A stretch of 64,000 nucleotides of DNA, from assembly GCA_965238225.1 (NCBI GenBank), contig OZ250183.1:1536001-1600000 (forward strand), given 5' to 3'. This document shows, piece after piece, positions 6,005 to 58,100 of this stretch (the stretch's first letter is position 1; every line of letters begins with the position of its first letter). The DNA is from Gammaproteobacteria bacterium (lineage in GTDB: Bacteria; Pseudomonadota; Gammaproteobacteria; Eutrophobiales; Eutrophobiaceae). The notes under the pieces are model-generated. The model had not been told where the DNA came from. It saw nothing but the letters and a program-made list of their open reading frames with translations, and did no database searches. The position numbers were made by a program, and so were the translations under genes.

Positions 6005-6502
6005 TTATTCCTCCGTCCTGCTTACAAGCGCAGCGACTTTGTCGCTCATAGAGTTTTGCAATAACGACGTTGCCGCATCTTTGGTAATTGCATGGACTGT
6101 AGTAATGTCGCCATCGACACCAATGGCGACCGTCCCGGGTGTTAGCGTAATCGAATTGGCAAGTATTGCACGCGCCAGATCTGACGGCTGGTTACTGCGT
6201 AAGGAAATTATGGCAGGACTAATTGGCATAGCAGGATTAAGTATCAAACGGCAGACATAGATATTTGAAACAAATATCTCCTTCACAAACCAAGCCAAAT
6301 AAATAAGCAGCGCCCTTACATTTAGATACAATGGATAGCTTTCGTGATCGATTATATCCATGCGTAATGTAAGCCATATAACCAGTACCACAGAAAAAAA
6401 TCCCAACGACATGAGTAGCGGAGTATAATGGTTCGAGAGCAATATCCATAAAATAATAAGCAATATCCCCAAACTAACGGCATGTATATTTTTATTCTGC
6501 AT
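6005..6502 (-). CDS. mnhE: Na+/H+ antiporter subunit E
   Basis: LANSITLTPGT motif; likely start ATG 6502 (the ORF track extends to 6580). Confidence 0.9.
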   Translation of the reverse strand: MQNKNIHAVSLGILLIILWILLSNHYTPLLMSLGFFSVVLVIWLTLRMDIIDHESYPLYLNVRALLIYLAWFVKEIFVSNIYVCRLILNPAMPISPAIISLRSNQPSDLARAILANSITLTPGTVAIGVDGDITTVHAITKDAATSLLQNSMSDKVAALVSRTEE

Positions 6503-6639
6503 TTTTTCAATTTTAATTAACTTTAAAGTAGTCGGAATTATAACTGCATTATACAAAAATGCTCCATAATCAATATTCAATAATTTTTATTAATCATATT
6601 TTTTACTGACTATGTATTGGAAGTTCGCGCATGTCTGCA

Positions 6640-29299: not shown

Positions 29300-29433
29300 G
29301 ACTGTTTATTATCTTTACCTACCGTATCTCGTACAATTAGTCTTTATTATTGATGTAGAATTTGATGGAGTATTATGGCACAGCCAGTGCAAAAGTACCG
29401 CCACAAGTTTATCCGTATTTAAGTGCTTCTCAA

Positions 29434-30066
29434 TCAACTCTTGGGCATGATCTGCACTAGGTTTCTCGTCCCCGTAACGCCCGGGATAGATAATGAGGTG
29501 ACTTTTGTAACAACATCTTTAGCAATTAAATCTGCGAGTTCGTTTTCTAAAACAGAACCTTTCATTGCCAACAAACAACCTCCCGGCTCAAGCAGATGAT
29601 GGCTGCAAGCATAAAAACCAGCTAATGAAGTAAAGGCGCGTGAAACAATCGTAGAAAAACATTGTTCTGTTTGATATTTCTCAATACGTGAATAAATAAT
29701 TTTTACATTTTTTAAATTTAATGTGATGACTGCCTGTTGCACAAACCGTGTTTTCTTATTGTTTCCATCCAGCAAAAACCAATGCGTATCAGGCATAGCC
29801 AGCGCCAAAATAATACCAGGCAACCCAGCGCCCGTACCAACATCTAGGCAAACCCCTTTTTGGATAAAAGGCAAAATAGAGAGGCTATCCATGACATGAT
29901 AGGCAAGCATCTTTTGTGGATCGCGAATGGCTGTTAGATTATAGGCCAAGCTCCACTGAGTCAGTAAATCTATATAAGAGAGGTACGCCTGTAAAGGCAG
30001 TCGAGCAGCCGACAAGCCCATGTCTTTAAGCCCTTGTTGAAGCTGAACCAATAAGGTATCAGACAT
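29434..30066 (-). CDS. rsmG: 16S rRNA m7G527 methyltransferase (GidB)
   Basis: NLTAIR, DVGTGAGLPG, SRAF. Confidence 0.96.
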   Translation of the reverse strand: MSDTLLVQLQQGLKDMGLSAARLPLQAYLSYIDLLTQWSLAYNLTAIRDPQKMLAYHVMDSLSILPFIQKGVCLDVGTGAGLPGIILALAMPDTHWFLLDGNNKKTRFVQQAVITLNLKNVKIIYSRIEKYQTEQCFSTIVSRAFTSLAGFYACSHHLLEPGGCLLAMKGSVLENELADLIAKDVVTKVTSLSIPGVTGTRNLVQIMPKS

Positions 30067-30167
30067 TACAGCAGTACATTTTTTATCTAAGACCAGCTTT
30101 CAATAAAATATCTTGAAACTTGCGTAGTTCTTTGTTTTAAAAAAACTGGCATACAGTACATCTTCTA

Positions 30168-32063
30168 TTAAGCGCTTTCCTTGAACTGAAACTGACTCTT
30201 TTTGAGATAAATACGAAGTAATGAAATAGCTGCTGGCGTCATCCCGGGGATGCGCGAGGCATGACCAAGACTATGGGGTTTATACTGACTCAATTTTTGT
30301 ATCACTTCGTTAGAGAGACCATGCACCTTTGCAAAATCAATATTACGAGGAAGCGTCGCTTCCTCGTAACTCAAATTACGCGCAATCTCATTTTCTTGGC
30401 GAGAGAGATAACCATCGTATTTAGCCTGAATCTCGATTTGTTGGATGACAGTATCAGAAATTTCACTGCTATCAAAGTCAGTTAATGTCACTAGATTTTT
30501 ATAGTCTACTTCCGGACGACTCAATAATTGCATCAGACTATATTCTCTTTGTAGTGGCTGACCGAGTACACGGATAGCCTCTTCTGCTGTTGTGGTTTCT
30601 GGTTTTAACCATGTTTTTTCAAGACGCTGTTGCCACTTAATAATCGCCTCACGCTTGTCAGAAAACTTCTGCCAGCGCAGAGAGTCAATTAAACCATGCC
30701 GACGACCAATCTCGGTTAAACGTAAATCTGCATTGTCTTCACGTAACAATAACCGATATTCGGCTCGACTGGTGAACATTCGATAAGGCTCGCTGGTGCC
30801 GCGTGTGATGAGATCATCAATCAGTACGCCGATATAGGCCTGATCACGTCGTGGGCTCCAAGGTGACTTACCCTGCGCCAACAATCCGGCATTCATGCCC
30901 GCTATGAGGCCTTGTACCGCAGCTTCTTCGTAGCCTGTCGTACCATTAATTTGCCCAGCAAAAAAGAGACCAGATAAATGTTTGGTCTCTAGCCACGGAT
31001 GCAAATCTCTGGGGTCAAAAAAATCATATTCGATGGCATAACCCGGTCGCGTAATATGCGCATTCTCAAACCCCTTGATAGAACGCACCATTTCATACTG
31101 CACGTCAAAAGGTAAACTGGTAGAGATGCCATTGGGATAAACTTCGTCCGTGTTCAAACCTTCTGGTTCGATAAATATTTGATGTGATGTTTTATCAATA
31201 AAACGTACTACCTTATCTTCAACAGAAGGACAATAACGTGGTCCTGTACCTGCAATATTGCCATTGAACATGGGTGAACGATCCAACCCCTGACGAATAA
31301 TCTCATGGGTCTTCTCATTGGTATGGGTAATATGACACGATACCTGTTTTGGATGTTCAGAAGCCGCACCTATGTAAGAAAACACAGGCACAGGGCTGTC
31401 GCTAACTTGTTCCTTTAATTTTCTGTAATCAATGGTTTTACCATCGATTCTCGGTGGCGTACCTGTTTTTAATCGTGCGACTCGAAAAGGCATCTCCCGT
31501 AAACGATTTGCCAGCGCATTTGCTGGGGGATCTCCAGCTCGACCTCCAGAAGACTGTCCAGTACCCACATGGATTTTGCCTGCCAGAAAAGTTCCTACTG
31601 TCAAAACGGTGTTCTTTGCCCAAAACTGCAGACCCGATTGCGTCACCACACCAACAACGCAATCACCTTTAATAATCAAATCATCAACGGCCTCTTGAAA
31701 AATCAACAGATTTTCCTGAGATTCTAGAAATGTCCGGACGACCTCGCGATACAGGGCACGATCAATTTGTGCCCTTGTTGCCCTGACCGCAGGACCCTTG
31801 CTGGCATTGAGTATGCGGTATTGAATACCGCTTTTATCTGCGGCATGAGCCATCAAACCGCCCAGCGCATCGATCTCTTTGACCAAATGCCCTTTACCAA
31901 TCCCACCAATCGCTGGATTACAAGACATCTGTCCCAAAGTATCAATACTATGAGTCAATAATAAGGTACTTGCGCCCATGCGGGCAGATGCCAAAGCGGC
32001 TTCGGTACCTGCATGACCGCCACCGACAACGAGACTATCAAATATCTTGGAGTTATAAGCCAT
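30168..32063 (-). CDS. mnmG: tRNA uridine-5-carboxymethylaminomethyl modification enzyme (GidA)
   Basis: [38 protein letters not shown]. Confidence 0.98.
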
Positions 32064-32305
32064 AAGGTGTGCGTATTGTAACGACAGATGCTCAATATGT
32101 AATCCTATTTAAAATCAAGTCGCCATTTTTTGATTTTGCTCTTGCTTTGTTGGTCTTTTGTTCTGATAATTTGGCTTGTTTTTTGGTTTTGATAATAAAA
32201 TCCCTTTTATTGCCTTAGTGATTATTTAATTAGTTTTAACACTTTCTATCATATATTCTACTTTTCTCTATTTGCAAAAATATTTTTCATTACTTTCTTT
32301 CATTA

Positions 32306-32566
32306 ATTTTAAATAATTTCAAGTGTTCTTTTAAACTGTGCTGCATCCTAAGATTCTCTAGATCATTGTTTTAGCATTGTTTTAAACCTTTAGTCTCGTT
32401 TTAGTTACAATAAAGTTCCAAGTTCCTAAAAAATTAAAGGGGGGCTGTCCTAAATAAGCGGGTTATAGTTACCTTAAGACATTGTTTTAATTGCTTGTAT
32501 GTGACAGCCCTTAAATTACTTTTTTTATTCTGACGAAGGAGGACGCTGCCATACACGAATATAGTC
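32306..32566. repeat. Direct repeat copy A: last ~14 codons of the giant gene plus ~220 bp of 3' flank
   Basis: Aligns by eye with 40875-41134 (attttaaataatttcaagtg...ggttatagttaccttaag...ggaggacgctgccatacacgaatatagtc), with small indels. Confidence 0.92.
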
Positions 32567-35500
32567 CCATTTACTGTTGACCTCGTTGATGAGAGAATCA
32601 TTGCTATACTTGGCAGTGCTGGCAATAATGTTCATCGGGCTGTCATAAACACCCGTAGTATACTCCGACATATTGTAAGTCACGCCAATGTGCTCGCCGT
32701 CGTGAAAAGCCTTTAGGTGCTCTCCAGTCCATTCTACCGCATAAACATGGTAATTCTCTGCAATGTTTGACAGCGCTCCATTCACCGCTAATAGACCTGA
32801 AGTCTTCGCATACCCTGCAGCGTATTCTGTCTCTCCAGGAGGTACAGGCCATACATGGTGCCTGTACGTCGCTACTTCGTGAGGTTGATTAAAGGGCAGA
32901 CCGATCTCCGCAATATCAATCTCATTCCAATAAGATTTGCCATCATAATTACCATTAGCCGACAGCCAGAACGCTGTCGTTGTAAAACTGTTAGTATTGG
33001 CCGCTTTAAGTCTTGCTTCAACGTAACCACACTCAATTTTACCAAGACTGCGCATCGCCGAGGCTTTATTGATGGTGAAAAATCTAGGATTTCCACCTTC
33101 AAAACCGGGGTTTTTCACATAATTGGTCGTACCGCCCACAGGGGTCACGGAGAAATCATCAAATCGGACAATAGATCCGGGATCTACCTCAACTTCCATA
33201 GCAATTGTTAATTCACCGTTAGTAACAACAACATTGTCAATCCTATATTCAATAAAGGATGTCGAATTGTGAATGGTTTTCGTTATCTCATTGTTGTCAT
33301 CAAGGGTTACTGTTACTTCTGCAGATGTTACATGGCCTCCTCCAGCCCATGCCCAGAAACTCACATTATATGTGCCGTTGGGGACTTCAACTTTCTGGCT
33401 AAAACGATTATGACTATAGTATTCTTCTGCGTAATGACCAAACAAGAAACTACCCTGACCTGTATGGTGGTATAGAGTCGTCGCCCGGGTGGAAGGCGGC
33501 TGCGAACCGTCAAATCCTGAAATACCTATTCCATTGAGTTCGAGATCAGCAATATGTCTCGTCCAGCCAAAAGATGAGGCACGGGCGTAAATGATATGTT
33601 TCTCGTATGCGGCTCTGCTTGTCAGGACACCGTCACCAACACTCAAATAATAACTGGGATCGTATGGAATGCTGGGCTCTTTTAGAATATGCCGAATATT
33701 TTGTGTCCATTTTGTTGTATCTAGGGCATCGCCATCAAATTCATCACTAAAGCTCGGCTTATATACCCAAGTCCCACTCGGACCGTTAACGCCGTCTAAA
33801 TTATAGGGCGTTGGGTCTTCTGCTTGGACGTTACCTTCCGTGCTAGAAGCTTCACTAGCACAAACGCCTTGACGATTCTCCACTTGTATCCTGCCAGATG
33901 ATGATGTGGGTTCGGCAATAATTTCATTGCCTGCTAAGTCCGTGGCTTGACTTAAGGTAAATACTTGTGTGTCAACACTATCGGCCACTGTCCAGAAATA
34001 GTGATATACGTTTGGACTGACTCTTGTCATATTAACTGTAATGATCTGTGCACCAACACCTGAGAGTCGTACAGGTTGTACAGCAGGGCTTTGTGCCATG
34101 TCCTCACTAAACTCGGCACGGATTCTATATGTATTCCTTGGGTATAATTTAGTCTCAGGATCATCGCTCATGGGCGGGTTAGCATCAGCATCGTATAAGT
34201 AATAAGAGAGCTCGGCTGTGGGTCGTATGGTCTCTTTGGCTACTGTAATGGTGCCACCAGATGTGGGTGTGCCAATCACTTCATTACCTGCTAAGTTTAT
34301 GCCGTCGCTTAGTGTGAATGTTTGTTCGCCAAGACCTGTGCCCACTGTCCAGTCATAGGTGTAGGTTCTTGCACTCACTCTTGTCATGCCGTTTATGTCA
34401 ATGTTATTGGCACCTGTGCCTGAGATTTGTACAGCAGGGCTTTGTGCCATGTCCTTATCGAAGGTGGCAGTGACCCGTACTTCATCCCCTGCTTGTACTT
34501 GATCCGCAAGAGCATCGTCATTTATGTGATAATAATGGAGGCTGGCTGTGGGAGGAGATAAGGTCACGTAAATGCTGGTAGATGTAGGTGTTATTACATT
34601 GCCTGATAAGTCTGTACCTTGGCTTAGTGTAAATATTTGTGTGCCATCACCTGTGCCTACTGTCCAAAAATAGTAATAGGTTGTTGCATTGAATTTTGTC
34701 ATATTGGTGGCAGCAATGGGATTTACACCAATACCTGTGATTTGCATGGGAGGACTATCTGTCATGTCCTCACTGAATTTAGCATGGACAATTATCTCAT
34801 CTCCTTCTTCTACTTGGGTGACAACGACACTAGTGTCATTAATGGTTTTAAGATATCCGATTGTAGCAGTGGGTGCTGTGTTGTCTACGGTAATAGTGGT
34901 AGATGTAGGTTCTATTACATTGCCTACTAAGTCTGTACCTTGGCTTAGTGTGAATGTTTGTGTGCCATCACCTGTGCCTGGTATCCATCTATAGGTGTAG
35001 GTTGTTGCATTGAATCTTGTCATGTTGGTGGCAGCAATGGGATTTACGCCAGTACCTGTAATTTGCATGGCAGGCGTATCTGCTATGTCCTCACTGAATT
35101 TAGCATGGACGATGACGGTATCCCCTGCTTTTACTGCAGGTATACGATAATTAGCTCCTATACGATAACTCATGCCGTTTACTCTTAGCCAAGAACGGAC
35201 ATCGGCTGTAGGGGCTGTGGTATCTTTTATGGTAAGTTCGTTTGTTGTAGTGTCTGCACTGGCGTTGCCCGCTGCATCAGTGACTGTTGCAGTGATGTCG
35301 TAAGTGCCATCAACAAGTGTATTGGCTGTAAAGTGCCATGTGCCATCCGTAGCAACAATAGGTGTATAGGTTTCACCATTTAAGGCAACAGAGAGTGTCT
35401 CACCTGTAAGAAGTGAGTTACCTATACCTATTGTGCCTGTGATTTGTGGTATTGAGTCGTTGCTGGTTAGTGTATTGACTGTGGGGGTAGTAGCAGGGGC

Positions 35501-38329
35501 TGTGTTGTCTACGGTAATGGTGGTAGATGTAGGTTCTATTACATTGCCTGCTAAGTCTGTACCTTGGCTTAGTGTAAATGTTTGTGTGCCATCACCTGTG
35601 CCTGGTATCCATCTATAGGTGTAGGTTGTTGCATTGAATCTTGTCATGTTGGTGGCAGCAATGGGATTTACGCCAGTACCTGTAATTTGCATGGCAGGCG
35701 TATCTGCTATGTCCTCACTGCATTTAGCATGGACGATGACGGTATCCCCTGCTTTTACTGCAGGTATACGATAATTAGCTCCTATACGATAACTAATGCC
35801 GTTTACTCTTAGCCAAGAACGGACATCGGCTGTGGGGGCTGTGGTATCTTTTATGGTAAGTTCGTTTGATGTAGTATCTGTGCTTACATTGCCTGTTGTG
35901 TCTGTGACTGTTACAAGGATGTTGTAAGTGCCATCAGCAAGTGCATTAGCATTACTTACTGTAAAAGACCATGTGCCATCCGTAGCAACAGTGGGTGTAT
36001 AGGTTTCACCATTTAAGGCAACAGAGAGTGTCTCACCTGTAAGAAGTGCGTTACCTGTGCCTGTTGTGCCTGTGATGACAGGTATGCTGTTGTTGCTAGT
36101 TTGTGCATTAACCGTGGGTGTCGCAGGGGCTGTGTTGTCTACGGTAATTGCAGCAGATGTAGGTTCTATTACATTGCCTGCTAAGTCTGTACCTTGGCTT
36201 AGTGTAAATGTTTGTGTGCCATCACCTGTGCCTACTGTCCATCTATGGATGTAGGTTGTTGCATTAATTTTTGTCATGTTGGTGGCAGCAATGGGATTTA
36301 CGCCAGTACCTGTAATTTGCATGGCAGGCGTATCTGCTATGTCCTCACTGAATTTAGCATGGACGATGACGGTATCCCCTGCTTTTACTGCAGGTATACG
36401 ATAATTAGCTCCTATACGATAACTAATGCCGTTTACTCTTAGCCAAGAACGGACATCGGCTGTGGGGGCTGTGTTGTCTACTACTACTGTTGTAATGTTA
36501 GTGGTGGTACCAGCATAGGCATTACCTGCAACATCTCTAAAGACTGTTGCTGGGATGGTGATTTCATAGCTTGTACCTGAAAGTAAGTCGTCTGTTGGGT
36601 TAAGGGTGATAGTAGAAGTACCTTCGCCTGTTACCTGTGTGCTTGTTACAGGAATATTTATAGCAGTACCACCTTGAGGTGTTAGGGTAATATTGCCTGT
36701 GCCTATGGTAATTTCTTCATTAAAGGTCAGCACAATATTACTGTCTAATGGAACATTAGTTGCATTATTTGCAGGTGTAAAGGATGTTAATGTCGGAGCT
36801 GTGTTGTCTACGGTAATAGTGGTAGATGTAGGTTCTATTACATTGCCTACTAAGTCTGTACCTTGGCTTAGTGTGAATGTTTGTGTGCCATCACCTGTGC
36901 CTGGTATCCATCTATAGGTGTAGGTTGTTGCATTGAATCTTGTCATGTTGGTGGCAGCAATGGGATTTACGCCAGTACCTGTAATTTGCATGGCAGGCGT
37001 ATCTGCTATGTCCTCACTGAATTTAGCATGGACGATGACGGTATCCCCTGCTTTTACTGCAGGTATACGATAATTAGCTCCTATACGATAACTAATGCCG
37101 TTTACTCTTAGCCAAGAACGGACATCGGCTGTGGGGGCTGTGTTGTCTACTACTACTGTTGTAATGTTAGTGGTGGTACCAGCATAGGCATTACCTGCAA
37201 CATCTCTAAAGACTGTTGCTGGGATGGTGATTTCATAGCTTGTACCTGAAAGTAAGTCGTCTGTTGGGTTAAGGGTGATGGTAGAAGTACCTTCGCCTGT
37301 TACCTGTGTGCTTGTTACAGGAATATTTATAGCAGTACCACCTTGAGGTGCTAGGGTAATATTGCCTGTGCCTATGGTAATTTCTTCATTAAAGGTCAGC
37401 ACAATATTACTGTCTAATAGAACATTAGTTGCATTATTTGCAGGTGTAAAGGATGTTAATGTCGGAGCTGTGTTGTCTACGGTAATAGTGGTAGATGCAG
37501 TGTCTGTGCTTACATTGCCTGCTAAGTCTGTACCTTGGCTTAGTGTAAATGTTTGTGTGCCATCACCTGTGCCTACTGTCCATCTATAGGTGTAGGTTGT
37601 TGCATTGAATCTTGTCATGTTGGTGGCAGCAATGGGATTTACGCCAGTACCTGTAATTTGCATGGCAGGCGTATCTGCTATGTCCTCACTGAATCTAGCA
37701 TGGACGATGACGGCATCCCCTGCTTTTACTGCAGGTATACGATAATTAGCTCCTATACGATAACTAATGCCGTTTACTCTTAGCCAAGAACGGACATCGG
37801 CTGTGGGGGCTGTGGTATCTATGGTAAGTTCGTTTGATGTAGTATCTGTGCTTACATTGCCTGCTGTGTCTGTGGCTGTTGCAACGACTTCGTAGGTTCC
37901 GCTGGTAAGTGTATTAGCATTACTTACTGTAAAAGACCATGTGCCATCTGTTACAACAGTGGGTGTGTAGGTTGTGCCATCTAACGCTACAGAAAAGGTT
38001 TCGCTTAAGCTAAGTGCTGTGCTTGTGCCTATTGTGCCTGTGATTTCAGGCGTTGTGTCATTGCTGGTTTGTGTATTAACCGTGGGGGTAACAGGGGCTG
38101 TGTTGTCTACGGTAATAGTGGTAGATGTAGGTTCTATTACATTGCCTACTAAGTCTGTGCCTTGGCTTAGTGTGAATGTTTGTGTGCCATCGCCTGTGCC
38201 TACTGTCCATCTATAGGTGTAGGTTGTTGCATTGAATCTTGTCATGTTGGTGGCAGCAATGGGATTTACGCCAGTACCTGTAATTTGCATGGCAGGCGTA
38301 TCTGCTATGTCCTCACTGAAGGTTAGCAT
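32525..38329 (-). CDS. Giant Ig-like repeat surface protein, C-terminal part, ending in a GH16 glycoside hydrolase domain with an inserted CBM
   Basis: Thr-rich DNTAPT-linked Ig repeats; GH16 motifs FSDEFDG, GYVEARLK, AFWL, EIDIAE, YHVYAVEW, DYIRVWQ; continues 38494-40683 across frameshifts. Confidence 0.88.
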   Translation of the reverse strand: MLTFSEDIADTPAMQITGTGVNPIAATNMTRFNATTYTYRWTVGTGDGTQTFTLSQGTDLVGNVIEPTSTTITVDNTAPVTPTVNTQTSNDTTPEITGTIGTSTALSLSETFSVALDGTTYTPTVVTDGTWSFTVSNANTLTSGTYEVVATATDTAGNVSTDTTSNELTIDTTAPTADVRSWLRVNGISYRIGANYRIPAVKAGDAVIVHARFSEDIADTPAMQITGTGVNPIAATNMTRFNATTYTYRWTVGTGDGTQTFTLSQGTDLAGNVSTDTASTTITVDNTAPTLTSFTPANNATNVLLDSNIVLTFNEEITIGTGNITLAPQGGTAINIPVTSTQVTGEGTSTITLNPTDDLLSGTSYEITIPATVFRDVAGNAYAGTTTNITTVVVDNTAPTADVRSWLRVNGISYRIGANYRIPAVKAGDTVIVHAKFSEDIADTPAMQITGTGVNPIAATNMTRFNATTYTYRWIPGTGDGTQTFTLSQGTDLVGNVIEPTSTTITVDNTAPTLTSFTPANNATNVPLDSNIVLTFNEEITIGTGNITLTPQGGTAINIPVTSTQVTGEGTSTITLNPTDDLLSGTSYEITIPATVFRDVAGNAYAGTTTNITTVVVDNTAPTADVRSWLRVNGISYRIGANYRIPAVKAGDTVIVHAKFSEDIADTPAMQITGTGVNPIAATNMTKINATTYIHRWTVGTGDGTQTFTLSQGTDLAGNVIEPTSAAITVDNTAPATPTVNAQTSNNSIPVITGTTGTGNALLTGETLSVALNGETYTPTVATDGTWSFTVSNANALADGTYNILVTVTDTTGNVSTDTTSNELTIKDTTAPTADVRSWLRVNGISYRIGANYRIPAVKAGDTVIVHAKCSEDIADTPAMQITGTGVNPIAATNMTRFNATTYTYRWIPGTGDGTQTFTLSQGTDLAGNVIEPTSTTITVDNTAPATTPTVNTLTSNDSIPQITGTIGIGNSLLTGETLSVALNGETYTPIVATDGTWHFTANTLVDGTYDITATVTDAAGNASADTTTNELTIKDTTAPTADVRSWLRVNGMSYRIGANYRIPAVKAGDTVIVHAKFSEDIADTPAMQITGTGVNPIAATNMTRFNATTYTYRWIPGTGDGTQTFTLSQGTDLVGNVIEPTSTTITVDNTAPTATIGYLKTINDTSVVVTQVEEGDEIIVHAKFSEDMTDSPPMQITGIGVNPIAATNMTKFNATTYYYFWTVGTGDGTQIFTLSQGTDLSGNVITPTSTSIYVTLSPPTASLHYYHINDDALADQVQAGDEVRVTATFDKDMAQSPAVQISGTGANNIDINGMTRVSARTYTYDWTVGTGLGEQTFTLSDGINLAGNEVIGTPTSGGTITVAKETIRPTAELSYYLYDADANPPMSDDPETKLYPRNTYRIRAEFSEDMAQSPAVQPVRLSGVGAQIITVNMTRVSPNVYHYFWTVADSVDTQVFTLSQATDLAGNEIIAEPTSSSGRIQVENRQGVCASEASSTEGNVQAEDPTPYNLDGVNGPSGTWVYKPSFSDEFDGDALDTTKWTQNIRHILKEPSIPYDPSYYLSVGDGVLTSRAAYEKHIIYARASSFGWTRHIADLELNGIGISGFDGSQPPSTRATTLYHHTGQGSFLFGHYAEEYYSHNRFSQKVEVPNGTYNVSFWAWAGGGHVTSAEVTVTLDDNNEITKTIHNSTSFIEYRIDNVVVTNGELTIAMEVEVDPGSIVRFDDFSVTPVGGTTNYVKNPGFEGGNPRFFTINKASAMRSLGKIECGYVEARLKAANTNSFTTTAFWLSANGNYDGKSYWNEIDIAEIGLPFNQPHEVATYRHHVWPVPPGETEYAAGYAKTSGLLAVNGALSNIAENYHVYAVEWTGEHLKAFHDGEHIGVTYNMSEYTTGVYDSPMNIIASTAKYSNDSLINEVNSKWDYIRVWQRPPSSE

Positions 38330-40600
38330 GGACGATGACGGTATCCCCTGCTTTTACTGCAGGTATACGATAATTAGCTCCTATACGATAACTAATGCCG
38401 TTTACTCTTAGCCAAGAACGGACATCGGTAGGGGCTGTGTTGTCTACGGTAAGTTCGTTTGATGTAGTATCTGTGCTTACATTGCCTGCTGTGTCAGTGA
38501 CTGTTGCAATGACTTCGTAGTTCAGTAAGTGTATTAGCATTACTTACTGTAAAAGACCATGTGCCATCTGTAGCAACAGTAGGTGTATAGGTTGTGCCAT
38601 CTAACGCTACAGAAAAGGTTTCGCTTAAGCTAAGTGCTGTGCCTGTGCCTATTGTGCCTGTGATTTGTGGTGTTGTGTCATTGCTGGTTTGTGTATTGAT
38701 TGTAGGGGTAGCAGGGGCTGTGTTGTCTACGGTAATGGCAGTAGATGTAGATGCCATTACATTGCCTGCTAAGTCTGTGCCTTGGCTTAGTGTAAATGTT
38801 TGTGTGCCATCGCCTGTGCCTACTGTCAATCTATAGGTGTAGATTGTTGCATTGAATTTTGTCATGTTGGTGGCAGCAATGGGATTTACGCCAGTACCTG
38901 TAATTTGCATGGCAGGCGTATCTGCTATGGGTTCGCTGAATCTAGCATGGACGATGACGGCATCCCCTGCTTTTACTGCAGGTATACGATAATTAGCTCC
39001 TATACGATAACTCATGCCGTTTACTCTTAGCCAAGAACGGACATCGACAGTAGGGGCTGTGTTGTCTACGGTAAGCTCGTTTGATGTAGTGTCTGTACTG
39101 ACATTGCCTGCTGTGTCTGTGATTGTTGCAGTGACGTTATAGGTGCCACCAGTAAGTGCATTAGCATTACTTACTGTAAAAGACCATGTGCCATCTGTAG
39201 CAACAGTAGGTGTGTAGGTTTCACCATTTAAGGTAATAGAGAGTGTCTCACCTGTAAGAAGTGAGTTACCTGTGCCTGTTGTGCCTGTGATGACAGGGGT
39301 TGTGTCATTGCTGGTTAGTGTATTAATCGTGGGTGTAGTAACAGGGGCTGTGCCTATCACTGTAATGGTGTTAGACGTGGTTTCGACAGTGTCCGTGCCT
39401 TGGTGGGTTAAAGTAAATGTTTGTATGCCAACAGCACCATCGTTGATTGTCCATGAATAGTAATAGAGCTCTCCGAGACTATCACTAGAGTATCTCATCA
39501 TACTGGTTGCAGGAAAGCTATGTGCGCCAGTACCTGTGATTTCTATACTAGGACTATCTGCCCATACTATTCCTCCAAGGTCTGTGGCAATGACAAATGC
39601 AGTATTCCCTGCTTCTACTTGAGTAACAGGCTGACCATTCATCAAATAAATGAGTGTAGCTTCGGGTGCTGTGGTATCTGTTGTTATGGTTGTAATGCTT
39701 ATACTGATACCAGCATAAGCATTACCTGCGCTGTCTGTGAAAGCTGTGTTGGGGGCAGTAATGCTATAGCTGGTATTTGCCAACAGAATATTTGTTGGAT
39801 CAATGGTAATTTTATTAGTACCTTCTCCTGTTACCTGTGTGCTTGTTATAGGAATATTTATAGCAGTACCACCTTGAGGTGCTAGGGTGATATTGCCTGT
39901 GCCTATGGTAATTTCTTCATTAAAGGTCAGCACAATATTACTGTCTAATGGAACATTAGTTGCATTATTTGCAGGTGTAAAGGATGTTAATGTCGGAGCT
40001 GTGTTGTCTACGGTAAGTTCGTTTGATGTAGTGTCTGTGCTGACATTGCCTGTTGCATTAGTGAATGTTGCAGTGATGTTGTAAGTGCCATCAGCAAGTG
40101 TATTGGCTGTAAAAGACCATGTGCCATCTGTAGCAACAGTAGGTGTATAGGTTGTACCATTTAAGGTAATAGAGAGTGTCTCACCTGTAAGAAGTGCGCT
40201 ACCTGTGCCTGTTGTGCCTGTGATGACAGGGGTTGGGTCATTGCTGGTTTGTGTATTAATCGTGGGTGTAGTAACAGGGGTTATGCCTATCACTGTAATG
40301 GTGTTAGACGTGGTTTCGACAGTGTCCGTGCCTTGGTGGGTTAAAGTAAATGTTTGTATGCCAATAGCACCATCGTTGATGATCCATGAATAGTAATAGA
40401 TCTCTCCGAGACTATCACTAGAGTATCTCGTCATACTGGTTGCAGGAAAGCTATGTGCGCCAGTACCTGTGATTTCTATGCTAGGATTATCTGCCCATAC
40501 TATTCCTCCAAGGTCTGTGGCGATGATAAATACATTATTCCCTGCTTCTACTTGAGTAACAGTCCGACCATTCATCAAATAAATGAGTGTAGCTTCGGGT
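34900..40600. repeat. Intragenic near-identical Ig-domain repeats (about 7 copies of the VRSWLRVNG module, 3 SbsA-like LTSFTPANNATNV modules, several TSND.TP.ITGT modules, 2 APEATLIYLMNG modules)
   Basis: Repeated DNA blocks are visible directly, e.g. a 669-bp tandem unit at ~36450 and ~37119. Confidence 0.93.
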
Positions 40601-40683
40601 GCTGCCTGTGCTACCTGTGCAGAAAATCCTGCAAGGAGAAAGACCAGTGTGAGACGTTTTAGTAGATTAGCTTTGCCTAACAT
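38494..40683 (-). CDS. Giant Ig-like repeat surface protein, N-terminal part with Sec signal peptide (same gene as 32525-38329; frameshifts at ~38520 and ~38320)
   Basis: MLGKANLLKRLTLVFLLAGFSAQVAQA signal peptide, same repeat modules; bridged by ORF 38313-38540 in a third frame. Confidence 0.87.
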   Translation of the reverse strand: MLGKANLLKRLTLVFLLAGFSAQVAQAAPEATLIYLMNGRTVTQVEAGNNVFIIATDLGGIVWADNPSIEITGTGAHSFPATSMTRYSSDSLGEIYYYSWIINDGAIGIQTFTLTHQGTDTVETTSNTITVIGITPVTTPTINTQTSNDPTPVITGTTGTGSALLTGETLSITLNGTTYTPTVATDGTWSFTANTLADGTYNITATFTNATGNVSTDTTSNELTVDNTAPTLTSFTPANNATNVPLDSNIVLTFNEEITIGTGNITLAPQGGTAINIPITSTQVTGEGTNKITIDPTNILLANTSYSITAPNTAFTDSAGNAYAGISISITTITTDTTAPEATLIYLMNGQPVTQVEAGNTAFVIATDLGGIVWADSPSIEITGTGAHSFPATSMMRYSSDSLGELYYYSWTINDGAVGIQTFTLTHQGTDTVETTSNTITVIGTAPVTTPTINTLTSNDTTPVITGTTGTGNSLLTGETLSITLNGETYTPTVATDGTWSFTVSNANALTGGTYNVTATITDTAGNVSTDTTSNELTVDNTAPTVDVRSWLRVNGMSYRIGANYRIPAVKAGDAVIVHARFSEPIADTPAMQITGTGVNPIAATNMTKFNATIYTYRLTVGTGDGTQTFTLSQGTDLAGNVMASTSTAITVDNTAPATPTINTQTSNDTTPQITGTIGTGTALSLSETFSVALDGTTYTPTVATDGTWSFTVSNANTLTELRSHCNSH

Positions 40684-40718
40684 AACTTTAATATTCCGTC
40701 ATCTGTTTGCGTTATATT

Positions 40719-40787
40719 TACACCTAAATTTATACCACTTATATCTAACTTAGATTAATTACACCTTAACTTAGATTAATTACACCT
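40719..40787 (-). promoter_or_regulatory. Phased TACACCT boxes, including a perfect 21-bp tandem repeat, upstream of the giant gene
   Basis: taacttagattaattacacct x2 at 40746-40787; TAYAYCT at 40719, 40740, 40760, 40781. Confidence 0.45.
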
Positions 40788-40874
40788 GATGATTCTATAC
40801 CCATCTGCTGCATACTCATCTGCTGGTTGATTGCCAATTACTTGTTAGTATTGGCCAATCCTTAACTGGCATAG

Positions 40875-41134
40875 ATTTTAAATAATTTCAAGTGCCTTTT
40901 TAAACTGTGCTGCATCCTACAAAAATTCTTTTAGCTTGTTTTAAACCCTTAGTCTCGTTTTGGTTACAATAAGTTCCTAAAAGATAAAGAGGGCTACCCC
41001 AGATAAGTAGGTTATAGTTACCTTAAGGCATTGTTTTAACTGTTTTAATTAGTTTAATTGCTTATTATGTGACAGCCCTTGAATGACTTTATTTATTCTG
41101 ACCAAGGAGGACGCTGCCATACACGAATATAGTC
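40875..41134. repeat. Direct repeat copy B (paralog of 32306-32566)
   Basis: Same sequence blocks as copy A, about 8.57 kb away. Confidence 0.92.
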
Positions 41135-41280
41135 AAATTCAGCTGTGGTGGAAAAATTCTTCCAGTTCTCCGTATAATCTCTAACCATAGCTCGCGCCTC
41201 AGCATCGAAGATAATATTTTAATGGATATATAAAATTAGCACTTTCACTGTTATTAGGGTATTGCACTACATCCTTCTGG
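41093..41280 (-). pseudogene. Relic 3' end of a paralogous GH16-tipped gene
   Basis: With one frameshift reads ...FIYPL/NIIFDAEARAMVRDYTENWKNFSTTAEFDYIRVWQRPPWSE*, versus ...SPMNIIAST...KWDYIRVWQRPPSSE* in the giant gene. Confidence 0.8.
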
Positions 41281-41586
41281 GGGATCTGTATTGTGTTGCT
41301 AATTGATTCGATAGGGCTGTGAATATCATTGATATTGGCAGTCTGTAAAGTAACAGGCGAGATTAAGACATCAAGATGGCGGTCACGCATTCGGTAACTT
41401 CATTAAGTTAACACATCAAAATTTACCAGACTCAAAATATTTAAACAGACGAAATTTATTTTAAATTACAAGGCAAAAAATTTACTCTCGGCATTTCAAT
41501 TTTGCCTTTAATTATGCAGGGCGTTACAATTCGGGATACTGTAATTTTTATTAGACTTATGCCTAACCAATACAGGAGCAGATGCA

Positions 41587-43653
41587 TTGAAAAGAGTTTG
41601 CCTGTTTAGCGTCACAATCTTATCTTTAATTATCCAACCTTGTTTCGCATACATGGGCGCGGCCAAAGATGCTTTGGCGCGTGAAGATTATGTCGGCGCT
41701 GCTGCTTTATTTCAAAAACTTGCCGAGCAGGGAGATAAAAAAGCGCAAGCTCATTTAGGTTATATGTACTACGTTGGTGAGGGCGTAGCACAGGATTATG
41801 CTGAGGCCATTAAGTGGTACAAGAAGGCAGTAATTCTTGGCGATAGAGATTCTCAATATAATCTCGCTGTTGCCTACGCATTTGGTCAAGGTATTGAACA
41901 AGACTACCAAGAAGCCCTGCAGTGGTATCGACGTGCTGCAGAACAAGGTCATAAGGTCGCGCAATATAGTTTGGGTATCTCGTACGCCTACGGCGAAGGG
42001 ACGACTCAAAATCAGCAATTAGCAGCAGAATGGTTTAAAAAATCAGCAGATCAGGGGTATGTTACGGCTCAAAACGCATTGAATAGTATCGAAAGAGCTA
42101 TGACGGATGCAAACAAGCCTGCGCTCATTCCCGATCCTGAAATAGACATCCTCAAAATAGACGATCTGCCAAAAAAAGGTTTTTTTGGCAGATTATTTGG
42201 CAAAAAAGATGAGGCAAATTCAAACTTAGAACCCAGTGATGAAGCTTACAAACAACCTGTCAGCGAGCATACAGAAGTGGCTGCCTCCACTGCTGCGGAA
42301 CAAAAACTGGAGCCTGACCCTGTTGAAATAGAGACACAGTTATCAGGAGAACCTAACATTGCAGATAAACCTCTGCAAACGACACAAACAGCGGTTCATA
42401 GTCAAACAGAGAAAAAAGGCTTCTTATCTTGGTTATTTTCCAGTAAAAAAATATTTGACGGTGAAGAATCGAATGCAGAAGACAATATGGAGGAAGATAC
42501 TGCCACAGACATCGTTGAAATTGATACTTCCACAGAACCTACGGTTATCGCAAAATTAGAAGAACCTGAACAATCCGAACAAAGCAGACAATCTTCAGCG
42601 CGTGCGCAAAGTAATGTTGATGATTCTATGAGTGAGCTTATGGGCAATTCTATGGAATTTTCTATGAATAATGCTACGAAAGATTTCATGGAAGATGAAT
42701 CTGGAGAAATATTTGCAGAGCCTATTGACCTTGTCTTAGATGCGAAAAATACAGACGACATCCTAAACCTACGGTCACTTGCAGCCAAGGGAAACTCAAC
42801 CGCTCAATTGCGGCTTGCTATCTTGTGTCATCAAGGCAAGGATGTGCAACAAGATAATACACAGGCCTTCCTCTGGTATCGCCGTGCAGCAGAACAAGGG
42901 CTTGCCGACGCACAATACAATCTTGGTAATATGTATTTGTTGGGCGAAGGTATTGAACAAGATGATTTCAAGGCGCAGCAGTGGTATAAAAAAGCAGCCG
43001 CACAAGGTCATCAAAATGCACAACATAATCTGGACAGCCTGCAACACACTATCACGACAAAGACAGAACAAGATGATGAGATAACAGAAGAACAAACTGA
43101 AAAGAAAATGGGATTCTTTAGTAGATTATTCGGACGAGATGAGCCTGATGAGGAACAATTTTTCGAACTTGATAACGCTATTGAAGAGACTGATAAATTT
43201 GACACTCATGATCCAGAAGCTATTCATCATTCACCAGAAAATCTCTATGCAAGAGGTCTTGCCTTTGAACTTGGTGAAGAAGTTTTGCAAAATTACAAAA
43301 CTGCCTTTAAATTTTTCAAGCAAGCAGCAGATTTAAATCATGCGCCGGCACAATACAAACTAGGTGTTGCCTATGCTTATGGTCAGGGTACTGAAAAAGA
43401 TCCTGCCAGCGCTCTCGCCCAGTATAAAAAATCAGCAGATCAAGGTCACGCTTTAGCACAAAGAGCACTCGCTACACTTTATATGAATGGTGAAGGCGTA
43501 GAACAAAACAAGCCGCTTGCTCTAGCTTGGTATGATATTTTGGTCAATAGCGGTAATGTCATGGATATTTACAAACGTGATACTTTAAAAGAAAAACTGA
43601 CAGCGGCTGAAATTAACGAAGCAAATATATTGAAACAGGGAATCGCGAACTAA
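41587..43653 (+). CDS. Secreted Sel1-repeat (TPR-like) protein with acidic linkers
   Basis: Signal peptide; AQYNLG.MY..GEG..QD...A..WY.KAA.QG repeats in three clusters. Confidence 0.9.
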   Translation: MKRVCLFSVTILSLIIQPCFAYMGAAKDALAREDYVGAAALFQKLAEQGDKKAQAHLGYMYYVGEGVAQDYAEAIKWYKKAVILGDRDSQYNLAVAYAFGQGIEQDYQEALQWYRRAAEQGHKVAQYSLGISYAYGEGTTQNQQLAAEWFKKSADQGYVTAQNALNSIERAMTDANKPALIPDPEIDILKIDDLPKKGFFGRLFGKKDEANSNLEPSDEAYKQPVSEHTEVAASTAAEQKLEPDPVEIETQLSGEPNIADKPLQTTQTAVHSQTEKKGFLSWLFSSKKIFDGEESNAEDNMEEDTATDIVEIDTSTEPTVIAKLEEPEQSEQSRQSSARAQSNVDDSMSELMGNSMEFSMNNATKDFMEDESGEIFAEPIDLVLDAKNTDDILNLRSLAAKGNSTAQLRLAILCHQGKDVQQDNTQAFLWYRRAAEQGLADAQYNLGNMYLLGEGIEQDDFKAQQWYKKAAAQGHQNAQHNLDSLQHTITTKTEQDDEITEEQTEKKMGFFSRLFGRDEPDEEQFFELDNAIEETDKFDTHDPEAIHHSPENLYARGLAFELGEEVLQNYKTAFKFFKQAADLNHAPAQYKLGVAYAYGQGTEKDPASALAQYKKSADQGHALAQRALATLYMNGEGVEQNKPLALAWYDILVNSGNVMDIYKRDTLKEKLTAAEINEANILKQGIAN

Positions 43654-43779
43654 TCACAGTAAATATATTAAAATTATAGCGCAAGACATTTCTGCACACT
43701 GAACAACCACGTTACAGTCCATCCGTGCTACGGATTATGAAGCGTAACTATAATACGACAATCATCAAGAAGAAATATA

Positions 43780-44043
43780 ATGAGTGAAAACGAAACAAAT
43801 AAAAACAATATGGAAAAAGGGTTTTTTAGTAAACTTTCAAATGGAGATTTTGGCTTAGCAAAAACTTACTGGTTATACAATGTATTAGTTGGTACTGTTT
43901 TTAACATTTTAATGAAACTCATTATATCAATTGAGTTTTTCATAATTGCGCTTGTAGCTTATATTGCATATTCAATACCTGTATTGATAGGGCTTTGGCA
44001 ATCTGCGAATAAATACAAAGGGAAAAAGTTATTACCAAAATAA
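43780..44043 (+). CDS. Small membrane protein, probable integron gene cassette, possibly C-terminally truncated
   Basis: GDFGLAKTYWLY...IGLWQSANKYKG; followed by an attC-like site. Confidence 0.65.
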   Translation: MSENETNKNNMEKGFFSKLSNGDFGLAKTYWLYNVLVGTVFNILMKLIISIEFFIIALVAYIAYSIPVLIGLWQSANKYKGKKLLPK

Positions 44044-55112: not shown

Positions 55113-58100
55113 ATGAATACAATCAAAAAACTCATATTCAAAAAACTCATGACTAAAACCATAACTAAAAAGCCTATAAGCTGCTTTATAAGCGCAATGC
55201 TTGTTTGCTTGGTCGGCGCAAGCCAGGCAAGCTATGCTGAAAGCCTAAACTTGGCGACCACTACACCATTAGCTATCTCTGTGTCGCCTATACAACATAA
55301 TGTCTTTCTGGCGCTGGATGATTCCGGCAGTATGGGATTTCTGAAAGTGCTAACGACTGAAGCAGAAGTCTATACGCAAGAAGGGTTAAGCTACAGGCAG
55401 AAGGAGGAGGATAGTTTTAGTCAGCTCTTAGAAAAAAATGACCCTACAGGTACAGAGGAGATTAAGAGTATTGTTGCAACAGACACATCCTCTGACAGAT
55501 CTGACCCGCAACTGCTTGCACGTTGTGTCGGATATAATATTGTGGCTTATGACCCAAATGTTATCTACACCCCTTGGGCTGGTTATACAAATGCACCGCC
55601 AACTGCTGCACCAACAAATAATCCCGGAGACAATAGCACAGTAGATTTAACAGAAACCAAAATTGATTACGTCAGTCTAGGGTATATACCCTGGGAGGAT
55701 GATAACGGAAATGGTAAATTTGATGCAGGAGAATGTGCTGACGAGAAAATTGAAAATAGAGGTTACACACAGGCAGAGATTGACAGTTTATCTTTCTTCG
55801 AACAGATTGATATTAAAAGTCCAGAGACTTGGCCAGTGGATATTGACACAAGCAAATATGTTGAGCTTAATGACATGACCGCAGAACAAAAGCAAAATTA
55901 CGCCAACTGGTTTTCCTATCACAGAAAACCACTGCACGTCATGAAACATACCATGTCTCATGTTATCAATGACTCTAGCGCCCGCATGGGCTTGGCGACC
56001 TTGCATAATAATGAAAATGCTGGCACGCCTGTCTCCGATATGACCGTACAAGCTAATAGAGCAGCCTTGCTGGAAGCATTGTTTAAAATTACAGCTGATG
56101 GCCCCACACCTTTACGGGCTTTGATGCGTCGTGCAGGTAGGTACTTTGACCAAGCAGACGATAATAGTGACCATGGAGATCTAGGCTTTACCGACGCAAG
56201 TCCCATTAACTCCCAAGCAAAAGGAGGTGAATGCCAGAAAAATTTTGTCGTAGCGTTTACTGATGGTCTGTATAATGGGGAATATTCAGACACGACCAAT
56301 AGTGATGGGGATAACTCAAGCGATTATGATGGCGGTCCGCATGCGGACTCTCATACTTCCACGTTGGCAGATATTGTCATGTACTACTACGAAACTGACT
56401 TATCTACAACACTGGATAATGAAGTTACAACCAGCACCTACACCGACCCGAGTACCAATATTACCTATACAGATGACAACCCGCAGCAGCATTTGAATAC
56501 TTATATAGTGACATTTGGCATAGGTGAGTCCGAAATAACCTTGCCCATCGACCATCTCAAAACAACCTCCCCGCCCGCAGGCGGATGGCCAAACCCGGGT
56601 TCTTCAAATACCAAAGACATATTAGCTGATCTGCAGCATGCAGCCTTTAATGGCCGCGGTTTGTCGTTTTTTTCTGGTAATCCGCAACAGCTTACTGAGG
56701 CCTTTGAGACCACGCTCACCTCCATTGAACAGCGTGGCAATCTTAGCAGTACTGCTGTTGCCATCAATAGTGGCAACCTGAATGTACGATCACATGCTTA
56801 TACGGCACTCTATAGTTCAGCTGATTGGACGGGTAAGCTTTCTGCCTATGCCTTTGATGAAAATAGTGATGTGATAGATACGGCGGTATGGGAAGCCTCA
56901 GAACAGCTCCCAGTGCATACTAACCGTAAGATATTTACCATGACCAACGACACATCAACAGGGGTAGAGTTTAAGCCCAATGCGGATACAACAGCTGATA
57001 CCAGCACAGTAGAGACTGCCATTGGCACCTTGAATGTAGGCGGCACAGACTATACAGCTGCAGATATCATCAATTACATCCGCGGTGATAAGAGCCTAGA
57101 AACAAGCCCTGGGCTGCGTGTACGCACGAGTCTCTTAGGAGATATAATCAACGCTTCACCAATATCACAAAGCACAGAAAACTTTGCTAATGGTTATTTA
57201 TCTGGGACTGAAGGTTCAAGCTACAGTAATTTTGTAGCGACAAAATACGCCACCTTTGGCAATAAGAATGTTATCTATGTTGGCAGTAACGACGGTATGC
57301 TGCATGCCTTTGAAGATGATTCCATTTCTGCATCTGCAAATGGCGAAGAGCTATTTGCCTATGTGCCAAGTTCTGTGCACGGTAAACTAAAACACCTTGC
57401 TGACCCTAACTATAACCATAGATTTTATGTCAACGGCGGTATCTCTATTGCCGATGTCTATATCAACGACGCATGGAAAACCATACTGGTTGCTACGCTC
57501 GGCGAAGGGGGCAGAACCATCTTTGCACTGGACATAAGTAATCCCTTTTCATTTGAGGCAAACGATGTCTTATGGGAATACAGTTATGATGATGATGCCT
57601 TGGCAAACAGAACTAATGCTGATGAGCTTGGCTTTGTCTTGCATAAACCGCAGATTGCCCGACTCAATAATGGCCAATGGGGGGTGATTTTTGGTAATGG
57701 TTATAATAGCCAATCTGGGCAATCAAAGACCTTTATCCTGAATGCTGCAACAGGAAATGAAATCGCAGTACTGGACTCCGAGTTTGGCGATACGGCTACT
57801 GTAGAAGAATTAAATGGCATGGCCATGCCATTTCTAGCTGATGATGATAGCAACATTACTGTTGATACCCTCTACGCAGGAGACCTGCAAGGCAATCTGT
57901 GGAAATTTGATATATCCAGTGATGATAAAACAGCGTGGCAGTCTGCATTTTCTACAGGAGGAAGCCCAGCACCCTTGTTCGTTGCCTATGATGGTGATAG
58001 CACTACAGCAAAAAGGCAGCCGATCACTACGAGGCCTACAGTTGCGGTAAACAAGAAAAATGAAAATATGATCTTGTTTGGTACTGGCAAATTTATTGAA

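Follow-up and report, generated by a model that had tools for sequence, protein, structure and literature searches.

A probable decayed array of giant Ig-repeat genes with different GH16 ends beside mnmG in a gammaproteobacterial genome

Introduction

In Helicobacter pylori, chimeras of babA and babB arise by intragenomic gene conversion between paralogous loci and without a dedicated recombinase. Here, we analysed a stretch of 64,000 nt from the genome of a gammaproteobacterium of the family Eutrophobiaceae (GenBank assembly GCA_965238225.1, contig OZ250183.1, positions 1,536,001 to 1,600,000 of the forward strand; hereafter the window). In it, a giant gene for a stalk of immunoglobulin (Ig)-like repeats with a terminal glycoside hydrolase family 16 (GH16) domain, the tip, lies between two copies of a direct repeat of 260 bp, and the upstream copy is joined to the orphan end of a second, different GH16 gene. 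A preliminary description of the sequence had seen in this arrangement a candidate system for the exchange of tips. According to our analysis, the locus is probably a decayed array of two genes, and the gene end and spacer that the two had in common bear the traces of homologous exchange in the past.

In the rhs locus of Salmonella Typhimurium LT2, an orphan downstream of the main gene has on its 5' side a stretch of 522 bp with 95 % identity to the gene body and codes for a complete, active toxin with its immunity gene (PMC3967940). Recombinants were detected in LT2, and homologous recombination between the shared sequences has been proposed as the fusion route (PMC3967940). In Neisseria, several to many silent pilS cassettes, among which conserved segments are interspersed, are located before pilE; conversion requires a guanine quadruplex (G4) and is enhanced by a 66-bp Sma/Cla repeat on the 3' side (PMC4023411). 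A literature search on Ig-repeat autotransporter families with gene conversion yielded no relevant report among the matches listed.

Results

Anatomy of the locus

The features of the locus are listed below in window coordinates. D denotes the repeat copy at the gene end, U the upstream copy and P a third copy outside the window.

32306..32566, reverse strand: repeat copy D, the last 13 codons of the giant gene, its stop codon and about 210-220 nt of 3' flank
40875..41134, reverse strand: repeat copy U, the last 13 codons of the GH16-B remnant, its stop codon and the flank
41093..41252, reverse strand: GH16-B remnant (the orphan), the C-terminal ~50 codons of another GH16 domain, with a frame slip of 1 nt at 41219
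32525..40683, reverse strand: giant gene in three frame pieces, 40683 to 38494 (729 aa), 38540 to 38313 (75 aa) and 38329 to 32525 (1934 aa)
38313..38540, reverse strand: middle piece of the giant gene, between a deletion of 5 nt (~38524) and an insertion of 1 nt (~38322)
33830..40600, reverse strand: Ig-like stalk, alternating Big_5, Big_13 and Big_3_3 (Pfam)
32525..33829, reverse strand: tip A, a GH16 domain with an insert like a carbohydrate-binding module (CBM); EIDIAE present
39049..41084, reverse strand: block shared with the paralog P2, 96.1 % identity over 2053 columns to genome 1417213-1419236

Copy D ends 243 nt upstream of mnmG, copy U sits directly upstream of the leader and start codon of the giant gene, and the spacing between the two is 8549-8569 nt (8.57 kb). 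A search of the genome with window 32300-32600 returned the query itself (genome 1568306-1568566), the upstream copy (genome 1576875-1577134, corresponding to window 40875-41134) with 78 % identity including gaps (E 3.0e-61), and a third copy P, which comprises the flank only and is located at genome 1419028-1419198 (79 %, E 3.5e-40), 150 kb from the window locus. The repeat is thus far beyond chance; in the non-coding part, the copies are similar without being near-identical. Between D and U, the coding tail of 13 codons and the stop codon is identical in 41 of 42 nt (98 %), the 12 nt following the stop codon in 9, and the flank core, which begins with AAGGGCTGTCAC, in 164 of 187 aligned nt (87.7 %), next to five indels that amount to 39 gap columns. 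No identical run is longer than 31 nt. Beyond the core, the next 190 nt are unrelated at 47 % identity. No inverted repeat of at least 30 nt was present within 30000-44000.

The flank core of copy U is identical to that of copy P in all 206 nt. This identity is part of the larger block shared with P2, which spans the spacer, the leader and the first 1.6 kb of P2; the first 440 residues of the two proteins are 98 % identical. These identities suggest that spacer, leader and gene start were recently copied between two loci 150 kb apart. Copy P is situated between two tandem paralogs, P1 and P2. There, the core begins ~18 nt after a relic of the autotransporter beta-domain of P1, while P2 has retained the 3' flank that is usual for barrel-type genes. 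In its three copies, the core follows at a distance of 12-20 nt on different gene ends, namely those of tip A and of relic B and, at P1, the relic of the beta-domain. Because copy P lies between P1 and P2 and the core is attached to three different gene ends, the flank core appears to be an inter-gene spacer of tandem arrays.

The orphan is a short piece of coding sequence. From 41218 to 41111 it reads NIIFDAEAR...DYIRVWQR, and 22 of 36 residues match the C-terminus of P0003, a metagenomic GH16 of 391 aa (E 2.5e-12 against a stretch of 1.1 kb). The 11 codons from 41252 to 41220 are in another frame and match the preceding 12 residues of P0003 in eight positions; the PL/N join in the orphan is therefore a frame slip of 1 nt (+1) at 41219. 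Upstream of ~41252, the sequence resembles neither P0003 nor the stalk nor any other part of the genome. A search upstream of 41135 likewise found no likeness to the stalk or to other parts of the genome, so the homology of the orphan is confined to its 3' side; both the catalytic EIDIAE region and an Ig-repeat arm on the 5' side are missing. Pfam assigned no family to the 40-aa relic piece alone. GH16 C-terminal strands are recognisable in the remnant, and P0003 itself matches PF00722 with 53.1 bits. With the resident tip A, relic B could be aligned over the last 16 residues only, and it resembles P0003 more than tip A. Its tail, QRPPWSE, is like the tails of tip A (QRPPSSE) and of the metagenomic proteins P0156 and P0009, and unlike that of P0003 (KKKADCE). 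Elsewhere in the genome, GH16 had one further occurrence, the 13-residue match of this relic. The orphan is thus a true but dead relic of a second, different GH16 end.

Several statements of the preliminary description can be set against these results. It had placed the last ~14 codons and ~220 bp of flank both at the gene end and upstream of the gene; its coordinates were exact, and the shared tail is shorter by one codon, comprising 13 codons and the stop codon. A highly similar flank had been claimed, and similarity was indeed found in the core at 87.7 %, but the five indels with 39 gap columns speak against near-identity. It had looked to further genomic copies, each preceded by another GH16 tip: a third copy exists, but a beta-domain relic and not a GH16 domain precedes it. 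The different GH16 ending that had been recognised in the upstream copy was borne out by the matches to P0003 on both sides of the frame slip (22/36 and 8/12).

The giant gene is broken by two frameshifts (-5 and +1). Its 729-aa piece has a signal-peptide-like start. In comparison to a neighbouring intact repeat unit, a further in-frame deletion of 3 nt was located at ~38428, and none of the three indels is in a homopolymer. Near-identical Ig repeats, as described before, are present: seven stalk units of ~620-670 nt have a core of 300 nt with 96-100 % identity, and the three tip-proximal units have diverged (64-72 %). Tip A alone matched PF00722 with 44.4 bits (cut-off 22) and CBM_4_9 with 19.8 bits, the latter below its cut-off. 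The motif E-x-D-x-x-E is the catalytic stretch of GH16 enzymes; the EIDIAE of tip A aligned with EIDILE, EIDVAE, ELDIAE and EIDFAE of relatives. Among solved structures 58 GH16 chains were matched, the best by profile being beta-porphyranases and kappa-carrageenases (E 1e-19 to 1e-14). The profile match and the EIDIAE-type stretch are common to tip A and this group, but tip A has a low identity to any solved enzyme and differs from the solved GH16 enzymes in its fusion to an Ig stalk of 1,500 residues and in its short QRPPxSE end. An AlphaFold2 model of the tip from an alignment of three sequences had a mean pLDDT of 38.5.

A family of autotransporter paralogs

BLAST of the locus against the genome revealed four further sites at 1030-1038 kb, 1044-1046 kb, 1104-1113 kb and 1404-1429 kb. 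Including the gene in the window, about ten family genes are distributed over five sites, and two of the other sites are tandem arrays. Stop-to-stop open reading frames (ORFs) indicate that over half of these ~10 genes are either split or truncated. One paralog (on the sequence section L093) matched PF03797, the autotransporter beta-domain, with 104.4 bits. Because this domain lies there behind Big_5 and Big_13, the family most likely represents type Va autotransporters with Ig-like passengers. The paralogs match this architecture exactly, and the gene in the window shares the signal peptide and the stalk with them. In both of its large pieces, however, PF03797 is absent according to Pfam, and GH16 stands in its place. 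The GH16 domain would thus replace the barrel, and a protein without a beta-domain could not be exported in the same way, which raises the question of how such a protein is exported.

P1, in three frame pieces, and P2 are located at genome 1414057-1429361 (L094), and both end in ..NNCKSFAGRYDT, a premature stop. A relic of the last 54 nt of the coding sequence for the autotransporter beta-domain follows ~55 nt after the two ends. The same internal deletion in both genes points either to a duplication of genes that were already dead or to a spread of the deletion by conversion. A further family member at genome 1103000-1113495 has the same signal peptide, five reading-frame pieces and a beta-domain at the end. 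The genome has a GC content of 40.1 %, and its cumulative GC skew has the minimum at ~0.28 Mb and the maximum at ~1.02 Mb; three family sites (1.03-1.11 Mb) are located just past the maximum.

Outside this genome, the stalk had no match in 60 sampled genomes of the taxonomic family or in the ten other species of the genus, and the tip had none in 30 relatives. The flank had no match in the 60 sampled genomes of the taxonomic family, and JGI metagenome contigs searched with the flank pattern gave none. The stalk family thus appears to be lineage-specific.

Tip borders and metagenomic relatives

The bodies of tips A and B have no similarity on the DNA level and little on the protein level, next to a tail with 98 % and a flank with 88 % identity. 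These unlike depths of divergence side by side therefore point to a later exchange or conversion of the 3' block. The remnant B is itself a mosaic with a body like P0003 and a tail like the resident tip A.

A profile search over 1.84 billion representatives for relatives of the tip detected a small GH16 clade, consisting of P0003, P0007, P0008 and P0009; P0156 belongs to the 90 % cluster of P0008. Over 92 % of the tip query, P0003 is 39 % identical to tip A. P0007, a stand-alone enzyme, has a signal peptide, a sorting tail of the type IX secretion system (T9SS) and the same CBM-like insert as tip A. With A and B included, the stalk-type tips number at least five, at pairwise identities of 42-60 %; four of them end in QRPPxSE, and all the variants differ most just before the tail. 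With the tip-proximal stalk as query P0157 was found, which is identical to the stalk end in 203 of 245 residues and in 38 of 40 in the last full block. P0156 shares 193 of 378 residues with tip A: the identity is 12/40 at the start, rises to 52-62 % in the middle, falls back to 12/40 towards the end and reaches 14/18 in the tail. Thus, the identity of this relative from ENA to the protein in the window drops from 38/40 at the end of the stalk to 12/40 in the first readable residues of the tip and rises to 14/18 in the tail. These profiles support the view that tip borders were end points of recombination in the past.

P0156 and P0157 are each recorded on an ENA contig of 8,839 nt, P0003 and P0008 each on one of 18,373 nt. 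If equal size stands for the same contig, a relative would possess two tips, one B-like and one A-like, no more than 18 kb apart, and a diverged tip on a conserved stalk. The first residue of P0003 and of P0156 lies within the domain, at a position where tip A has a leucine, and P0157 and P0008 run out of frame at their ends. Because all these ORFs begin inside the domain, the contigs of the relatives seem to carry frame breaks: either the giant genes of the relatives are frame-broken too, or their assemblies are prone to error. P0009 and P0161 are encoded on further ENA contigs of 9,838 and 12,068 nt. Other collections gave little: a scan with one genome per species yielded 152 distant GH16 proteins only, the best with 30-35 % identity over half of the domain, a scan of JGI metagenome proteins one unrelated GH16 from high-GC DNA, and a search of viral contigs one irrelevant match. 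Fused long forms of the tip were represented by the protein of the window itself and one unrelated protein.

Public sequencing runs

The only public runs with this DNA are two from one sample, where it is present in the form of contigs; hardly any of its sequence words occur in a third run that is labelled as the same species. The contigs were compared over 29400-33900, the D side, with the stalk left out. Independent contigs of the two runs reproduced 29400-33829 with 0-1 differences and broke at the edges of repeats. On the D side, no variant junction was present in the assembled contigs of this sample, in which rare variants are dropped. One contig with a likeness of 80 % represents copy U or copy P, aligned to D. 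A joint from 31723 to 32596 was set aside, as it consisted of 30 letters on one side of a single contig with low depth.

Surroundings

The following features border the locus.

40875..40904, reverse strand: promoter-like site TTTAAA-18 nt-TAAAAT at the distal edge of U, facing the giant gene; a consensus match only
32306..32335, reverse strand: promoter-like site TTTAAA-18 nt-TAAAAT at the distal edge of D, facing mnmG; a consensus match only
30168..32063, reverse strand: mnmG (gidA), followed by rsmG, parA, parB and the atp operon
41587..43653, forward strand: divergent gene for a Sel1-repeat protein, bordering the side of the remnant

None of the 41 ORFs of at least 140 aa in the window matched a family of recombinases, transposases or invertases, and, apart from the giant gene, all ORFs of this size matched complete families. 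The four-run G3+ pattern of G4 motifs was absent from both strands of the 64 kb. In copy D, a stem of GGGCUGUC/GACAGCCC is followed by a U-rich run. Against Rfam, the flank had no match at E<=1, its folding energies were no better than those of shuffled sequences (z 0.03 and 0.68), and a scan for terminator-like sites in the flank gave none.

The region upstream of mnmG is not conserved in five relatives and differs in every one examined. In other species of the genus, an unrelated, large and secreted-looking ORF of 1400 aa was found at this position (G005, L011:3900-8102), an ORF with RTX-like GGxGxD repeats (G001, L012:2-583) or small genes only (G004). The site seems to collect large secreted-looking genes.

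Further observations concern more distant parts of the window. The minor pilin encoded at 54083-54538 matches ComP_DUS, the receptor family for DNA-uptake sequences. The commonest over-represented 10- and 12-mers of the genome, with up to 243 copies, are coding repeats of the RTX-like motif GNDTLYG, and were rejected for this reason as a DNA-uptake signal. Downstream of a minor-pilin cluster (GspH-like, PilW, PilX), two PilY1-type genes are arranged in tandem at 55113-58733 and 59150-62806 (1206 and 1218 aa). Small ORFs at 4843-5385 and 6005-6580, with a gap between them, match the antiporter subunits MbhD/MbhE and MnhE and may be the remains of a larger operon of the Mrp type.

Discussion

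Probable history of the locus

The reading we favour starts from two giant Ig-repeat genes that once would have stood head to tail with different tips, gene B upstream and gene A downstream. In one branch of the family, the C-terminal beta-barrel would have been replaced by GH16 with a CBM-like insert. The direct repeat of 260 bp would then represent the shared gene end of 13 codons together with the inter-gene spacer. Homologous recombination or gene conversion among the members of the array may have kept tail and spacer alike, while the tip bodies would be modules that differ from ancient times. Presumably the same process recently copied the spacer, the leader and 1.6 kb of the 5' end between the giant gene and P2, 150 kb away. 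Later, gene B would have been deleted except for 160 nt, gene A was broken by its two frameshifts, and no switching would be left in the genome. The sequences themselves show the anatomy, the three copies, the relic, the frameshifts and the mosaic of identities; the order of these events and a role of recombination rather than selection in the conserved block are what we infer. The former tandem array with different tips in the preliminary description agrees with this as the simplest reading, considering that other sites are tandem and that the spacer of U equals that between P1 and P2 in 206 of 206 nt; a full gene B is the part that goes beyond the alignments.

Some observations weigh against this history. 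A full-length gene B was deduced and not seen. Allowing for purifying selection, the identity of the tail (41/42) is not significantly above that of the flank, and the estimated probability of no synonymous change in 13 codons is P ~0.2. A fast divergence of the tips under selection, even if nothing was exchanged, could also result in a mosaic protein profile. No other family gene follows copy D that would point to an array of three genes. The comparison of contigs was confined to the D side. For the relatives, the pairing of P0003 with P0008 and of P0156 with P0157 on shared contigs is based on equal sizes only, and the ENA ORFs are fragments that start inside the domain and do not give the gene order of the relative.

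Alternative explanations

An insertion of the Campbell type is unlikely, but survives best among the alternatives. Circular or incoming DNA with leader, stalk, tip A, tail and flank would have crossed once into a stand-alone GH16-B gene beside mnmG, the 260-bp homology would thereby have been doubled around an insert of 8.3 kb, and GH16-B would have been cut short later. Direct repeats of exactly the shared homology do flank the whole gene, a stand-alone GH16 of this clade exists in P0007 with its signal peptide and T9SS sorting tail, and both stalk and tip look acquired, as they were not found in the ten other species of the genus, in 60 genomes for the stalk and in 30 relatives for the tip; moreover, the region upstream of mnmG is different in every relative examined. 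With the present data such an insertion is indistinguishable from the decayed array. Against it, the flank of U runs unbroken into the 2 kb in common with P1-P2, an array in which this flank truly is the spacer between genes, and the divergence of 12 % between D and U demands an old event or partners that had already diverged.

A functional non-coding flank, acting as terminator and promoter or as a small RNA and kept alike by selection at three places, would make the repeats uninformative on recombination. The TTTAAA-18-TAAAAT site is found at the same place in D and U, exactly where the homology ends, copy D has the GGGCUGUC/GACAGCCC stem with its U-rich run, and the core begins 12-20 nt after three different gene ends. 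Against selection for such a function stand the absence of an Rfam match at E<=1, folding no better than in shuffled sequences (z 0.03 and 0.68), the lack of terminator-like sites in the scan and the failure to find the element in 60 genomes of the taxonomic family. Drift accounts better than constraint for the five indels that separate D from U, and the complete identity of U and P points to copying. We consider this explanation improbable.

A working tip-swap system, in which the orphan is a silent donor and the Ig repeats as 5' arm and the tail with the flank as 3' arm still exchange tips or change the copy number, is not supported in this genome and has to be seen as very improbable. Its elements are partly present: direct repeats, Ig units that are almost identical, five or more different tips in the GH16 clade of which four have the same tail, the abrupt tip borders in comparison to the ENA relative, and a ComP-type pilin as a hint at natural transformation. 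The orphan, however, consists of ~50 codons interrupted by a frame slip and lacks both the catalytic region and an adjoining Ig-repeat arm, and the recipient gene is frameshifted. Because the orphan lies upstream, a crossover of D with U would delete the whole gene instead of swapping the tip. D and U do not seem to exchange with each other, because they drifted apart (87.7 %, five indels, a longest identical run of 31 nt) while U and P are identical in 206 of 206 nt; frequent exchange would have homogenised D and U. The window encodes no recombinase, as had been noted before (none of 41 ORFs of at least 140 aa), nor does it have a G4 motif, and the flank pattern gave no match in the JGI metagenome contigs. 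Of the tip exchange by recombination that had been proposed, past exchange at the tip borders is upheld, but a usable system in this genome is not, considering the missing 5' arm, the diverged repeats and the frameshifted gene.

A misjoined assembly of a repeat-rich locus as the source of the orphan and the frameshifts is scarcely credible: the gene is full of units with 96-100 % identity, U is near-identical to the other locus over 2 kb and the Logan contigs break at repeat edges, but the genome is a single contig of 1,722,049 nt rated 100 % complete, the stretch 29400-33829 recurs in independent contigs of the two runs with no more than 0-1 differences, D and U are too unlike (78 % including gaps) to be confused, and the relic is divergent with a closest relative of its own.

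Implications

If only the reading as a relic is right, the locus is a well-resolved case of paralogous surface-protein genes that were built and dismantled by recombination in a shrinking genome, which is useful for annotation and not surprising. More tentatively, and as a possibility on the doubtful side, intact relatives may have Ig stalks with polymorphic GH16 tips that are homologously exchanged among members of an array or among strains, the last Ig domain serving as 5' arm and the tail with the spacer of ~210 nt as 3' arm. Exchangeable tips of this kind would be a glycan-targeting counterpart of the tip exchange in Rhs and contact-dependent inhibition (CDI) systems or in phage tail fibres, and the window would contain a burnt-out example in which the relic of a tip has been displaced. 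They would extend the cassette-like exchange of C-termini, as in toxins and phage receptor-binding proteins, to carbohydrate-active enzymes on long stalks, and would offer a natural set of variant GH16 domains on one scaffold for work on substrate specificity.

Comparison with described systems

With the orphans of rhs-CT and cdiA-CT genes, the locus shares an alternative C-terminal fragment that lies beside a long gene with a conserved body and is devoid of its own start and export signals (PMC3967940). In comparison to LT2 rhs, the orphan in the window is located upstream (41093-41252, with the gene start at 40683), has no 5' arm, comprises ~50 frameshifted codons and has homology on the 3' side only. 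The tips in the window are glycoside hydrolases and not toxins, an immunity gene is lacking, and no recombinant was seen in the contigs of one sample. The pilE/pilS system of Neisseria resembles the locus in having partial silent copies before the expressed gene, and its conserved element at the 3' end next to a variable part (PMC4023411) would have a putative counterpart in the conserved 3' block. In comparison to pilE/pilS, the window has one dead relic, no internal segments common to tips A and B and no G4 in 64 kb.

The behaviour that the alignments demonstrate, the copying of a 2-kb block between paralogous loci, corresponds to ordinary intragenomic gene conversion. The locus is thus comparable to families of the babA/babB type in H. 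pylori, in which paralogs with shared ends are found at several loci; in the genome analysed here, this behaviour is represented by the 2-kb block with 96 % identity that is shared with P2. Differently from babA/babB, the family in the window would exchange whole C-terminal domains of unrelated function, a translocator barrel against GH16, and it consists of giant tandem-repeat genes, most copies of which are decaying.

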